Shown here piece after piece: positions 40,308 to 43,268 of a stretch of DNA of 64,000 bases. Within the stretch, counting starts at the first letter, position 1. Every line of letters starts with the position of its first letter. Source of the stretch: a virus (lineage: Duplodnaviria; Heunggongvirae; Uroviricota; Caudoviricetes); the IMG/VR virus record IMGVR_UViG_3300022751_000001, positions 14,950-78,949 of that record; one strand, 5' to 3'. The notes below the pieces were generated by a model. It was not told where the DNA came from, searched no databases, and saw only the letters and a list, made by a program, of their open reading frames with translations. The position numbers and the translations under genes were made by a program.

Positions 40308-40371
40308 TGGCTCCGCACACGGGTTGCAACGCCTTGGTGCAAACGTTATACACTTCAGACACGTGTACGGA
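40308..40371 (-). pseudogene. 64-nt CCA-terminated tRNA-like element (degenerate tRNA?)
   Basis: 7-bp acceptor-like helix TCCGTAC/GTGCGGA, discriminator G, CCA; too short for a cloverleaf; contains GTTGCAAC...CCCGTG as in the elements at 40907 and 43165. Confidence 0.3.
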
Positions 40372-40374
40372 GTT

Positions 40375-40458
40375 TGGCGGAAGATTGGATAATCGAAAAC
40401 CATGCTTTCACACTCATCGCTTAGCGGGCGAGACCTGATCCTATCAGGTTAATCTTCC
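40375..40458 (-). tRNA. tRNA-Ser(GCU)-like, atypical D-arm (possible pseudogene)
   Basis: perfect acceptor GGAAGAT/ATCTTCC, discriminator G, CCA, T-loop TTCGATT, anticodon loop CCGCTAA with C33, long variable arm; D region is a 7-bp hairpin with a 3-nt loop. Confidence 0.4.
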
Positions 40459-40461
40459 ATG

Positions 40462-40547
40462 TGGCGGAGAGGGTGGGATTCGAACCCACGGTGCTTTCAC
40501 ACACTGGTTTTCAAGACCAGCTCGATCGGCCGCTCTGACACCTCTCC
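40462..40547 (-). tRNA. tRNA-Ser(UGA)
   Basis: type-II tRNA; anticodon loop CTTGAAA; GGTTCGAATCC T-arm; CCA. Confidence 0.75.
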
Positions 40548-40553
40548 TAATTG

Positions 40554-40641
40554 TGGTCGGTCTAGCTAGATTTGAACTAGCACGAGGTTTTAATCTCCGC
40601 AGGGTTTAAGCCTGCTATGTCTACCGTTTCATCATAGACCG
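40554..40641 (-). tRNA. tRNA-Leu(UAA)
   Basis: type-II; anticodon stem GCAGG/CCTGC, loop CTTAAAC; CCA. Confidence 0.75.
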
Positions 40642-40646
40642 TAATT

Positions 40647-40732
40647 TGGTACCGAAGGTGGGACTCGAACCCACAACGCTTTTCAGCACTGGTTCCTAAG
40701 ACCAGCGTGTCTACCAATTCCACCACTTCGGC
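40647..40732 (-). tRNA. tRNA-Leu(UAG)
   Basis: type-II; 5' GCCGAAGTGGTGGAATTGGTAGACAC; anticodon loop CTTAGGA; CCA. Confidence 0.75.
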
Positions 40733-40737
40733 ATATT

Positions 40738-40822
40738 TGGTGTGCTTACTCAGACTTGAACTGAGATGAGATTAACTCGGTAGCTTTTGAAACTACTGCG
40801 TATACCGTTCCGCCATAAGCAC
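40738..40822 (-). tRNA. tRNA-Leu(CAA)
   Basis: type-II; anticodon loop TTCAAAA; T-arm CTCAG-TTCAAGT-CTGAG; CCA. Confidence 0.7.
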
Positions 40823-40827
40823 ATATT

Positions 40828-40901
40828 TGGAGAAACGTATCAGATTCGCACTGATGTAAACGGGTTTGCAATCCGCTGCGTAGCTGCTCCGCCAACGCTT
40901 C
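40828..40901 (-). tRNA. tRNA-Cys(GCA)
   Basis: anticodon arm GCGGATTGCAAACCCGT (cf. E. coli Cys GCGGATTGCAAATCCGT); discriminator U; CCA. Confidence 0.7.
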
Positions 40902-40906
40902 ATATT

Positions 40907-41022
40907 TGGCACCCCCGCAAACCTTTAGGGTGAGCTAACAAATGCTTTTTATAACTAGTATGTTGCACTTGCTTGCCTGCGTATCTACTCAGGTAATTAA
41001 GCTGAGCACTACAAACGGGGGT
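40907..41022 (-). ncRNA. 116-nt CCA-terminated tRNA-like element (function unknown)
   Basis: perfect 7-bp terminal helix ACCCCCG/CGGGGGT, discriminator G, CCA, enclosing ~100 nt of AT-rich sequence without a canonical T-loop; 3' region ...CCTAAAGG...CGGGGGTGCCA resembles the element at 43165. Confidence 0.3.
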
Positions 41023-41027
41023 ATATT

Positions 41028-41098
41028 TGGTGAAGTAGGACGGAATCGAACCATCGCCTTTTGATTTACAGTCAATCGGGTGCCCTGCACGCTACAAC
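41028..41098 (-). pseudogene. tRNA-Tyr(GUA)-like, probably degenerate
   Basis: anticodon loop CTGTAAA and T-arm GATGG-TTCGATT-CCGTC are good, but the acceptor has two T-T mismatches, the D-arm is tiny and the variable arm is short for Tyr. Confidence 0.3.
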
Positions 41099-41103
41099 AT
41101 ATT

Positions 41104-41180
41104 TGGTGGTTTCGGTCTGAATTGAACAGACGACCCCCTGTTCTTCAAACAGGTGCTCTAACCAACTGAGCTACAAAACC
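41104..41180 (-). tRNA. tRNA-Phe(GAA)
   Basis: GCTCAGTTGGTTAGAGC D-arm; anticodon loop TTGAAGA; CCA. Confidence 0.75.
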
Positions 41181-41193
41181 AAAAGTTACTTGT

Positions 41194-41274
41194 TCGGGGA
41201 GCCAGGAGTTGAACCTGGGCATCGGGTCTATATTACTCTGCAGCCCGCAGCACTAACGTTATGCTTACTCCCCG
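41194..41274 (-). pseudogene. atypical tRNA-like gene: no encoded CCA, 15-17-nt anticodon loop
   Basis: perfect acceptor CGGGGAG/CTCCCCG and T-arm CCAGG-TTCAACT-CCTGG, but the anticodon stem CGGG/CCCG encloses CTGCAGAGTAATATAGA; 3' end is ...A-ACA instead of CCA. Confidence 0.3.
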
Positions 41275-41277
41275 TTA

Positions 41278-41352
41278 TGGTCAGTCCAGTAGGGTTCGAA
41301 CCTACGGTCTCATGCTCCCAAAGCACGCGTGATACCACTTCACTATAGACTG
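41278..41352 (-). tRNA. tRNA-Pro(UGG)
   Basis: anticodon loop TTTGGGA; T-arm GTAGG-TTCGAAC-CCTAC; CCA. Confidence 0.7.
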
Positions 41353-41355
41353 ATT

Positions 41356-41985: not shown

Positions 41986-42019
41986 TAAAAAAAGACACCT
42001 ACTTGTGGGTAGATGTCTC
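41986..42019 (-). terminator. rho-independent terminator (minus strand) inside the tRNA region
   Basis: minus-strand GAGACATCTACC-cacaa-GTAGGTGTC then TTTTTTT. Confidence 0.45.
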
Positions 42020-42140
42020 TCGTTGTTTGTTTTCAAAATTCTTCTTATGAAGAGAACGACAAGACACCTACACTAAATTGATCCGGGCAATTTGACCAGA
42101 GCTGTGATAGTAGTGAGTGACTATATAATGTCTTCATAAT
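42020..42140 (-). ncRNA. candidate small RNA (~130 nt) bounded by promoter and terminator
   Basis: minus-strand promoter ttgtat-18-tgg-tataat (plus 42144-42173) upstream and the 41986-42019 terminator downstream; longest ORF inside is 21 codons. Confidence 0.3.
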
Positions 42141-42143
42141 TTC

Positions 42144-42173
42144 ATTATACCATAATAATAAATGGCAATACAA
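42144..42173 (-). promoter_or_regulatory. putative promoter with extended -10 (minus strand)
   Basis: reverse complement ttgtattgccatttattattatggtataat. Confidence 0.35.
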
Positions 42174-42188
42174 TCTTTTTTATAAATT

Positions 42189-42263
42189 TGGTCACCCATG
42201 GGAGAGTTGAACTCCCGTTGCATGATTGAAAATCATGTGTCCTAACCGTTAGACGAATGGGCG
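42189..42263 (-). tRNA. tRNA-Glu(UUC)
   Basis: anticodon stem CATGA/TCATG, loop TTTTCAA; T-arm GGGAG-TTCAACT-CTCCC; CCA. Confidence 0.7.
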
Positions 42264-42268
42264 ATATG

Positions 42269-42345
42269 TGGTGAAACCGATAGGGATCGAACCTATGACA
42301 CCCTGATTAAGAGTCAGGTGCTCTAACCAGCTGAGCTACGGTTCC
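42269..42345 (-). tRNA. tRNA-Lys(CUU)
   Basis: GCTCAGCTGGTTAGAGC D-arm; anticodon loop CTCTTAA; CCA. Confidence 0.7.
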
Positions 42346-42442
42346 ATATCTTGAAAAGGTGCTACGAGAAGTTTCGGCTCATACGTCCATGCAATTCCTG
42401 CCTGGTTTGACCTCGTAATCATACTTGCTACCAATATGTATT

Positions 42443-42518
42443 TGGTGGAGTTGCAGAGAATCGAACTCTGGTGAAGACGTTGCAAACGTCCCATAATAAA
42501 CCGTTATATGACAACCCC
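42443..42518 (-). tRNA. tRNA-Ala(UGC)
   Basis: acceptor GGGGTTG/CAACTCC; anticodon loop TTTGCAA; T-arm CAGAG-TTCGATT-CTCTG; CCA. Confidence 0.65.
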
Positions 42519-42526
42519 GAATTGTT

Positions 42527-42602
42527 TGGTAGTTCCCGCTGGACTTGAACCAGCACCAGCTTCGTTAGAACCGAAGTGCCCTATCCATTAGACCAGAGAA
42601 CC
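42527..42602 (-). tRNA. tRNA-Arg(UCU)
   Basis: anticodon stem CTTCG/CGAAG, loop GTTCTAA; T-loop TTCAAGT; CCA. Confidence 0.65.
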
Positions 42603-42830
42603 TTATATTTCTGCTTTGAGGTACTTATCGAGCAGATCATTGATTTGAGTAATGTGAACCATACCAGCTTGTTTCACAGCTATTTCACCAAAGTGTCTGC
42701 GCAGTACTACGAAACCTTGTTCGAGTGCTTGCGTTTCTTCTTCAATGATGTCGCGAGTTAGGTCATGCACTAGACTTTCAGCTTGTCGCTTGACTAAGTT
42801 TGGGTCTGGGTCTTTGCGGTATGCTTCCAT
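42603..42830 (-). CDS. hypothetical protein nested inside the tRNA array
   Basis: 75 aa from the internal ATG (MEAYRKDPDPNLVKRQAESLVHDL...); the longer ORF start would overlap tRNA-Gly; stop abuts the 5' end of tRNA-Arg. Confidence 0.4.
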   Translation of the reverse strand: MEAYRKDPDPNLVKRQAESLVHDLTRDIIEEETQALEQGFVVLRRHFGEIAVKQAGMVHITQINDLLDKYLKAEI

Positions 42831-42846
42831 ACTCTTATTATACGTA

Positions 42847-42921
42847 TGGTGCGGGTACACAGAATCGAACTGTGATCCCCTGATTGGAAGTCAGGTATAT
42901 TAGCCGTTATACTATACCCGC
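42847..42921 (-). tRNA. tRNA-Gly(UCC)
   Basis: perfect acceptor GCGGGTA/TACCCGC; anticodon loop CTTCCAA; T-arm CACAG-TTCGATT-CTGTG; CCA. Confidence 0.7.
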
Positions 42922-42927
42922 AAATGT

Positions 42928-43005
42928 TGGAGCCCCTCACGGAGTCGAACCGTTCCTCGTACCTACCACGGTACGCGTGCTAACCAACGTTACACTAACT
43001 GGGGC
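42928..43005 (-). pseudogene. tRNA-Thr(GGU)-like with irregular anticodon loop and acceptor (possible pseudogene)
   Basis: anticodon region CGTAC-CGTGGTAG-GTACG allows only a 6- or 8-nt loop around GGT; T-loop TTCGACT present; acceptor pairing imperfect; CCA position ambiguous. Confidence 0.3.
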
Positions 43006-43008
43006 GTA

Positions 43009-43082
43009 TGGGGCCGCCACTCGGTACTGCCCCGAGGTCGATAGTTTACAAAACTACTACTCTACTTTTGAGCTATGGCGGC
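43009..43082 (-). tRNA. tRNA-Thr(UGU) with non-canonical T-loop
   Basis: perfect acceptor GCCGCCA/TGGCGGC, discriminator C, CCA; anticodon loop TTTGTAA; T-arm TCGGG-GCAGTAC-CCGAG lacks the T54-psi55-C56 consensus. Confidence 0.5.
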
Positions 43083-43085
43083 ACT

Positions 43086-43161
43086 TGGTAGTCCCAGAAG
43101 GAATTGCACCCTCGACACCTTGTTCCGAAGACAAGTGCTCTATCTGCTGAGCTATAGGACT
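43086..43161 (-). tRNA. tRNA-Arg(UCG)
   Basis: acceptor AGTCCTA/TGGGACT; D-arm GCTCAGCAGATAGAGC; anticodon loop CTTCGGA; CCA. Confidence 0.6.
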
Positions 43162-43164
43162 TTA

Positions 43165-43268
43165 TGGTGCACGGGGGCAGCTTTAGGCTACCTCTATTCT
43201 AATAACGCTTCAGTGCACCTCTACGCTTTCGATTCTCGAGCCACGTTGCAACGATGTGCTCTCCGTAC
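43165..43268 (-). ncRNA. 104-nt CCA-terminated tRNA-like element (function unknown)
   Basis: terminal helix GTACGGA/CCCGTGC, discriminator A, CCA; no T-loop; interior contains CGTTGCAACG and ...GCCTAAAGCTGCCCCCGTGCACCA, echoing the elements at 40308 and 40907. Confidence 0.3.

Follow-up and report, generated by a model that had tools for sequence, protein, structure and literature searches.

Structured non-tRNA elements with tRNA-style ends in the tRNA array of an uncultivated phage as probable accessory small-RNA genes

The stretch of viral DNA analysed here (the window: 64,000 nucleotides (nt), positions 14,950 to 78,949 of IMG/VR record IMGVR_UViG_3300022751_000001) carries a dense array of transfer RNA (tRNA) genes, interrupted by three segments, elements A, B and C, that begin and end like tRNA genes and have a different interior. 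What do these segments encode? We consider it probable that they are accessory small-RNA genes within a polycistronic tRNA array, each combining a structured non-tRNA body with a tRNA-style handle. The three candidates are:

40308..40372, minus strand: element A, predicted hairpin RNA of 64-65 nt
40907..41022, minus strand: element B, predicted four-way-junction RNA of 116 nt
43165..43268, minus strand: element C, predicted RNA of 104 nt

Matches to terminase, tail fibre, RecT-like, DNA polymerase exonuclease subunit and glycosyltransferase proteins identify the window as phage DNA. No close cultured relative was found among GenBank phages, in which matches were limited to individual tRNAs, and the RecT and terminase of the window are at most ~30-40% identical to those of cultured phages. 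The array runs along the minus strand from 43691 down to 40147 (~3.5 kilobases (kb)). ARAGORN predicted 22 tRNAs in it, all 22 on the minus strand, and the Rfam tRNA model added four more (43455-43525, 43012-43082, 41195-41273 and 41031-41101). Elements A, B and C, found at the coordinates given in an earlier note made from the sequence alone, are gaps in this annotation and lie on the same strand as the tRNAs. ARAGORN made no tRNA call on any of the three, and a search with 4227 Rfam models, including the tRNA model, assigned them no family, also when slices of 116-161 nt were searched at E<=10; weak matches to the CRISPR-DR27, uup and miRNA models (E 1.7 to 7.9) were dismissed as noise. The earlier note had held that ordinary tRNA annotation does not explain these elements and that their interiors contain neither cloverleaf nor T loop, and both points agree with these searches and with the predicted folds, which show other architectures.

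The ends of the elements were compared with those of every other gene of the array in a table of leader, first 7 nt, last 7 nt, discriminator, CCA and trailer. The terminal layout of A, B and C is that of the neighbouring tRNAs. Each follows a leader of 3-5 nt, mostly of the AAUAU type, and the flanking spacers have the same length and type as those between tRNAs, which confirms the tRNA-gene-like spacing first described. Element A has the leader ..CCAAAC and the termini TCCGTAC...GTGCGGA (7/7 pairs), followed by G and CCA; element B has the leader CCAAATAT and the termini ACCCCCG...CGGGGGT (7/7), again followed by G and CCA; and element C has the leader CCAAATTT and the termini GTACGGA...CCCGTGC (6/7, the innermost pair being A x C), followed by A and CCA. 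A purine discriminator and an encoded CCA, with the next spacer directly behind it, are therefore found at all three ends as originally proposed, and the 7-base-pair (bp) helix attributed to each is complete in A and B and reduced to six of seven pairs in C. The nucleotide at position -1, the last of the leader, is U in B and C, and C or A in element A. A helix-closed 5' end, a single-stranded leader and a 3' RCCA, as found in non-tRNA substrates of RNase P, are thus present. We calculate that random 7-nt termini would form 6/7 pairs or better, counting G-U, with a chance of ~0.013 and carry CCA at the exact position with one of ~1/64, so three such gaps are far beyond chance.

Relatives of the window were collected by protein-guided searches with the RecT-like gene, a DnaD-like gene and a 75-amino-acid (75-aa) open reading frame (ORF) of the array. 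The near relatives are four distinct metagenomic contigs in IMG/VR and JGI (L001, L002, L003 and L004); in L017, L018 and L019 the elements are identical or nearly identical to those of the window. Contig L012 is a more distant relative (array ORF 88% and RecT 87% identical). RecT is 81-87% identical in L024-L029 and L032-L035, and the array ORF is 75-83% identical in L013-L016. Examination of these homologous arrays, as the earlier note had proposed, showed that A, B and C recur in the four near relatives, at 95-100% identity, and in L012.

Element B gave the fullest structural picture. Its minus-strand sequence (ACCCCCG...CGGGGGUGCCA, 116 nt) is predicted to fold at -37.1 kcal/mol (z = -2.5) into a four-way junction, in which an acceptor-like helix of 8 bp (41022-41015 pairing with 40918-40911), followed by the discriminator G at 40910 and the CCA at 40909-40907, closes a long hairpin 1 (41013-40980), a hairpin 2 (40977-40933) with a conserved 19-nt loop at 40964-40946, and a hairpin 3 with the sequence ACC-CUAAA-GGU at 40931-40921. 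B occupies the slot between the Tyr and Cys tRNAs in the window group and in L012 alike, and is 100% identical in L001/L004, 96.6% in L002 and 76-77% in L012. In a model-fitted alignment of three distinct sequences, 97% of pair cells hold standard pairs, and seven pairs have changed on both sides and are still paired (one in the acceptor helix, two in hairpin 1 and four in hairpin 2). Sliding the 3' partner by 1-3 columns, as a control, gave 30-43% pairing and 0-1 two-sided pairs, and an unfitted MAFFT/RNAalifold alignment gave four two-sided pairs. The 19-nt loop is identical at 18 of 19 positions in L012 although its stem covaries. A palindrome in this loop, ACUAGU (40954-40959), reads ACGCGU in L002.

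Element A (minus-strand sequence CUCCGUACACGUGUCUGAAGUGUAUAACGUUUGCACCAAGGCGUUGCAACCCGUGUGCGGAGCCA) is predicted to form a long hairpin with a minimum free energy of -26.1 kcal/mol (z = -3.6). It consists of a terminal helix of 11 bp once C40372 is counted (40372-40362 pairing with 40321-40311), a second helix of 5 bp, and an inner 5-bp hairpin with a 7-nt loop (40353-40337); the 3' CCA lies at 40310-40308. An unpaired 3' bulge, UUGCAACC, is conserved in sequence and overlaps the palindrome GUUGCAAC at 40330-40323. A is 95% identical in L001/L004 and 83-84% in L012, where its homolog sits in another slot, between Leu(tag) and Ser(tga). Across four distinct sequences every position of the terminal helix stays paired; two of its pairs have changed in a compensatory way, against 0-1 in slid controls, and two on one side only, and the inner hairpin adds one further compensatory pair, giving three for the element; in L002, the inner hairpin is swapped for an unrelated sequence that still folds as a hairpin. 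The covariance model of A (R2) scored 94 bits on the minus strand and 19 bits on the plus strand, and the helices contain several G-U pairs, which would be A-C mismatches on the opposite strand. Together these observations indicate that the structure is that of an RNA read in the direction of the tRNAs.

Element C (minus-strand sequence GUACGGA...CCCGUGCACCA, 104 nt) has a predicted helix-closed, multi-branch fold whose interior is uncertain. A terminal helix of 6 bp (43268-43263 pairing with 43174-43169) precedes the discriminator A at 43168 and the CCA at 43167-43165; a 3' hairpin, GGUAGC-CUAAA-GCUGCC, lies at 43192-43176, and the interior carries GUUGCAAC at 43252-43245. The sequence is 97-98% identical in L001-L004 and L019. 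A homolog in L012 (L012:9295-9387), missed by blastn, lies between the Met and Arg-tcg tRNAs as in the window and keeps the 6-bp helix, one unpaired nucleotide, A and CCA. The MAFFT alignment of the two is unreliable in the interior, and the comparison was restricted to the terminal helix and the hairpin, whose stem has changed from GGUAGC/GCUGCC to GAGAGC/GCUCUU with two compensatory pairs. The GGUGCACU of C is GGUGCACC in relatives and still palindromic. Such palindrome-preserving changes, seen in all three elements, might reflect loop-loop dimerisation or a site acting at the DNA level, and by our own estimate are not statistically compelling.

Are the elements under selection? Third codon positions of the array ORF, taken as a neutral proxy, are 63% identical between the window and L012. 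A (83%) and B (76%) lie above this value and C (58%) below it, the tRNAs ranging from 56 to 96%. Covariation, the check suggested at the outset, shows that terminal and internal helices are kept through compensatory substitutions, at seven pairs in B and three in A. The outcome that the earlier note had named as a refutation, neither conservation in related phages nor covariation of the terminal helix, was not obtained. Gene layout and covariation both point to selection on A, B and C as structured RNAs.

The elements are not present in every relative. In the L024 array the gene order is otherwise the same, but Met and Arg(tcg), as well as Tyr and Cys, are directly adjacent; the contig stops short of the position of A. 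No copy of A, B or C was found in the arrays of L024, L025-L029 and L032-L035 by blastn or by the covariance models of A and B. Pattern scans of IMG/VR for A and B returned nothing beyond the same contigs, a scan of JGI metagenomes returned only contigs already found in IMG/VR, and GTDB genome scans found nothing. The clean absence of B and C from L024 marks them as accessory cassettes, and on these sequence comparisons the elements are accessory cassettes of one shallow clade.

Do A, B and C form one family? The earlier note had proposed a small related family united by shared motifs. The motifs exist, but each is shared by only one pair of elements: among the three, GTTGCAAC (two of its four copies in the 64 kb, of which A, B and C together cover 0.44%) and CCCGTG occur only in A and C, and CCTAAAG (two of its ten copies in the window, both ending 16 nt before the 3' end) only in B and C. 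What B and C do have in common is a 3' module, consisting of the C-CUAAA-G hairpin at the position of a T arm, the 3' strand of the acceptor helix and RCCA, and it is kept in both lineages. As full homologs the two were rejected, the B model aligning C out of register at 10.9-13.7 bits, so that the 3' module alone is shared. A differs in architecture, being a long hairpin. A pairing between A and C through their shared GUUGCAAC was also considered and rejected: this sequence of the window group is GUUAUAAC in the A of L012, and the C of L012 has neither. The family claim thus survives for the 3' module of B and C and fails for the rest, given the weak B-C alignment, the different architecture of A and the loss of GTTGCAAC in L012. 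We would call A, B and C a class with a common handle rather than a homologous family, and one family only in a loose sense.

For these elements the most likely pathway is that of tRNA maturation. A seven-pair acceptor stem has been described as a major determinant of RNase P recognition (PMC4201824), and bacterial RNase P pairs with the 3' RCCA through the P15 loop of its RNA and favours U at -1 (PMC4919922). The handle of A, B and C comprises a leader, U-ending in B and C, a terminal helix of 6-11 bp, a purine discriminator and the encoded CCA. In the proposed pathway, the elements would be co-transcribed with the flanking tRNAs, host RNase P would cleave at the 5' base of the terminal helix, aided by RCCA, and the 3' end would be trimmed back to the encoded CCA, releasing stable RNAs of ~64, 116 and 104 nt. 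From the anatomy of the ends we infer such RNase P and 3' processing, and, likewise, transcription and a role in trans. With no anticodon arm and no T loop, the elements do not decode; their bodies are probably functional cargo that would bind protein or RNA, as suggested by the two covarying hairpins of B with their conserved loops and by the conserved bulge of A.

Several observations weigh against this interpretation. The predicted fold of C is no better than those of shuffled sequences (z = -1.3), and C is only 58% identical in L012, its interior not being conserved. The A of L012 terminates in CUA, not CCA, and the absence of B and C from L024 means that they are dispensable. Lacking a T loop, the elements are less certain than tRNAs to be recognised by RNase P or the CCA-adding enzyme. 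The covariation statistics are weak, with 3-5 distinct sequences per element from one shallow clade, and the alignments used for counting in A and B had been fitted to the model. For the array as a whole no clear promoter could be identified. Terminator-like hairpins occur both inside it and upstream: one of them, GGAGCUAAAUAGCUCU plus a U run (43705-43720, minus strand), is directly upstream of the first tRNA and kept in relatives, with no sigma-70-like promoter in the stretch between this hairpin and the array. Nor was a convincing antisense target or partner found within the 64-kb window. The 19-nt loop of B has no complement there at <=3 mismatches; a 13-nt antisense match of A to a minus-strand ORF at 61633 was set aside as being at about chance level over five elements, and a 12-nt match at 31054 as being in the sense orientation.

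One specific function can be put forward as a speculative and rather unlikely option, namely that A, B and C are RNA decoys, whose acceptor/RCCA handles would bait host effectors that sense or modify tRNA ends or elbows, or the phage's own repair enzymes. The baited effectors would be, for example, tRNA nucleases or nucleotidyltransferase toxins acting on CCA ends, and the fast-evolving bodies would tune specificity. For phage tRNAs themselves, a role as supplements or as decoys in the face of tRNA-cleaving defences is under discussion (PMC13096335). A PNKP-like gene (KTI12/AAA_33/HAD_PNKP) is present in the window at 49900-50862 and in relatives, several of which also carry RNA ligase (PF09414) and RlaP genes (L024:9237-11102; L025:11031-14502); these RNA-repair genes lie a few kb from the array and suggest selection by tRNA-damaging host defences. 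The large arrays, the oddly shaped tRNAs and the PNKP, RNA ligase and RlaP genes of this phage group lend the decoy option circumstantial support.

The array contains further unannotated RNAs and two small ORFs:

41601-41985, minus strand: 385-nt structured RNA candidate, between a terminator-like hairpin (~42024-41992) and tRNA-Trp
40375-40458, minus strand: element E, candidate 84-nt CCA-ended RNA directly upstream of A, missed by the earlier note
~42926-43006, minus strand: element X, with a canonical T arm and a weak acceptor (5 pairs and 2 mismatches)
42346-42442, minus strand: element D, 97 nt, between tRNA-Ala and tRNA-Lys(ctt), with no CCA handle
42603-42830, minus strand: 75-aa ORF, conserved in five lineages at 75-100% identity
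~42043-42135, minus strand: 30-aa ORF conserved in L012, which has a TATAAT-like promoter of its own and a terminator-like hairpin behind it

Standard tRNA annotation leaves ~700 nt of the 3.5-kb array unexplained, made up of A, B, C, D and the 385-nt structured RNA. The last of these may be the most interesting object in the interval. RNAalifold on five sequences gave it 87 pairs, 19 of them with compensatory changes; the core is conserved and the peripheral domains vary. Its conservation extends further than that of A, B and C: it is full length in the window group, L002 and L024, split into two pieces in L012 and represented by its 5' third only in L025-L027. It matched no Rfam family at E<=10, and searches of IMG/VR and GTDB found nothing beyond the same contigs.

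We regard element E as a probable aberrant tRNA-Ser(GCU). Its acceptor is paired at 7/7 positions and accompanied by G73 and CCA, UGGUU-UUCGAUU-AUCCA resembles a T arm, the variable arm (GUGUGAAAGCA) is like that of tRNA-Ser, and the 7-nt loop CCGCUAA would give the anticodon GCU. A 7-bp hairpin with a 3-nt loop stands in place of the D arm, and carries three compensatory pairs (CCUGAU/AUCAGG to CCAGUA/UACUGG) in L001 and L002. E had no match from ARAGORN, the Rfam tRNA model or any other Rfam model. Element X, with the anticodon region CGUAC-CGUGGUAG-GUACG, is likely a tRNA-Thr(GGU) whose anticodon loop has 8 nt (or 6 nt); the array has no other Thr tRNA, and in L024 the same slot holds an ARAGORN Thr(ggt). 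Near relatives have element D at 97-100% conservation, and it can still be recognised in the distant L013 (L013:10551-10615), with a covarying stem (ACGAG/CUCGU to AGGGAG/CUUCCCU in L013) and a conserved CAGGAAUUGC; its slot in L013 and L024 also has a small Cys-rich ORF. The 75-aa ORF shows identities to L012 of 93/92/63% at the three codon positions. Related arrays carry elements of their own. Helix-closed non-tRNA elements occur in L029, in the gap between Asp and Asn (L029:6177-6259), and in L005 (~5763-5810), sharing GGGUGAAAGCACC..CAAUCUCG(C/U)ACAAGUAU, and the His-Gln gap of L025 (L025:5248-5345) holds a 98-nt RNA candidate, closed by a 9-bp terminal helix and lacking CCA, that neither L029 nor L032 has. 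Accessory RNA cassettes thus seem to be a recurring feature of these phage arrays.

How do other explanations of A, B and C fare? They might be cis-acting structured spacers that fold, insulate or order the processing of neighbouring tRNAs by RNase P and RNase E, with no function of their own after release. Clean cassette boundaries, dispensability in L024 and the poorly conserved interior of C fit such a role. We nevertheless regard it as unlikely: spacers of only 3-8 nt suffice for most tRNA pairs of the array, a mere spacer would not need the sequence-conserved long loops of B or bulge of A, and the neighbourhood of A differs between the window and L012.

The earlier note had also allowed for decayed tRNA genes, that is, pseudogenes retaining an acceptor stem and CCA by chance, and this origin now appears improbable. 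The compensatory changes that maintain the helices, the conservation of A and B beyond that of synonymous sites, and the loops of B, which are conserved in sequence while the stems covary, all speak against decay, as does the failure to find significant similarity to any tRNA of eight arrays or any tRNA-model score even at E<=10. The slots and ends are tRNA-like, and a continuum from tRNA to non-tRNA is conceivable in an array that also has the aberrant tRNAs E and X and the four found only by Rfam; the 5' part of B, UUUGUAGUGCUCAG, faintly resembles the 8-15 region of tRNA, in our own reading only.

Highly aberrant yet functional decoding tRNAs are very improbable. Such tRNAs would account for the 7-bp acceptor, discriminator and CCA, and odd tRNAs are evidently tolerated here, given the 7-bp hairpin replacing the D arm of E and the odd anticodon loop of X. 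A, B and C, however, have no conserved 5-bp stem with a 7-nt, U33-type anticodon loop (the 7-nt loop of A, UAACGUU, has no U33 and is wholly replaced in L002) and no T loop; lengths of 104-116 nt and four-way junctions do not fit a tRNA; and 20/20 amino acids are already covered when E and X are counted. It is equally hard to credit that the elements act as DNA, as recombination or homing-endonuclease sites or protein-binding palindromes: the palindromes GTTGCAAC, ACTAGT (ACGCGT in L002), CTCGAG and AACGTT, two of which stay palindromic after double substitutions, and the homing-endonuclease genes of related arrays favour this, but three 8-mer palindromes where about one is expected are not significantly above chance by our own estimate, and the structure is strand-specific with G-U pairs and shows compensatory changes across long-range helices, beyond local palindromes.

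With accessory small-RNA genes as the preferred interpretation, A, B and C can be set beside known RNAs. They resemble tRNAs (RF00005) in acceptor helix, discriminator, encoded CCA, spacing and strand, and differ in having no cloverleaf, anticodon arm, T loop, or ARAGORN or covariance-model score. YrlA-type Y RNAs of bacteria and phages are likewise non-coding RNAs with a tRNA-like module, and YrlA of M. smegmatis, with an acceptor stem of 7 bp, is an RNase P substrate to which CCA is added (PMC4201824). YrlA, however, mimics the D and T arms, bears a GNCGAAN0-1G motif and adjoins a Ro60 gene, whereas A, B and C have no T loop and no Ro60 gene was noted nearby; the Rfam YrlA model matched only ordinary tRNAs, at E ~4, and none of A, B and C, slices included. 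RNase P also acts on non-tRNA substrates such as 4.5S RNA, tmRNA and phage regulatory RNAs (PMC4919922). Among these, pre-4.5S RNA and the C4 antisense RNA of P1/P7 are closed by a hairpin or helix and matured by RNase P, and A is similarly a long hairpin with a 3' GCCA; unlike A, B and C, they lie outside tRNA arrays and have known functions, as signal recognition particle RNA and antisense repressor. Structured RNAs of phages classed as candidate 'tRNA or tRNA-like', with no function assigned, have also come from a large screen of IMG/VR (PMC10690425).

The closest precedent, judged by context and with no sign of homology in sequence or structure, is the pair of small, stable species 1 and species 2 RNAs of phage T4 (rnaC and rnaD; 139 and 119 nt), which lie in the tRNA cluster on the tRNA strand. 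They derive from the same primary transcript as the T4 tRNAs (PMC2330249) and are non-decoders whose function was listed as unknown in papers of 2010 and 2022 (PMC3014915, PMC9697503). A, B and C are also small non-decoder RNA genes within a phage tRNA cluster, on the tRNA strand. The covariance models of B (R1) and A (R2) had no match at E<=10 in the T4 locus (L020), and the differences are structural: a canonical T arm (GGGUUCGAAUCCC) is found in rnaC, and no T loop in A, B or C; rnaC and rnaD lack a fully encoded CCA, and A, B and C encode RCCA; B and C have the CUAAA pentaloop hairpin; and the folds differ. That a similar layout occurs in a lineage unrelated to T4 suggests that phages have recurrently used a tRNA handle plus cargo to make stable small RNAs with the host tRNA-processing pathway, and the cassette-like gain and loss, aberrant tRNAs and RNA-repair genes make this phage group suited to asking what such RNAs do. 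That phage tRNA clusters can include small non-tRNA RNAs has been clear from T4 for decades; the window presents a T4-like arrangement in an unrelated, uncultivated phage lineage, with RNA families that are new.

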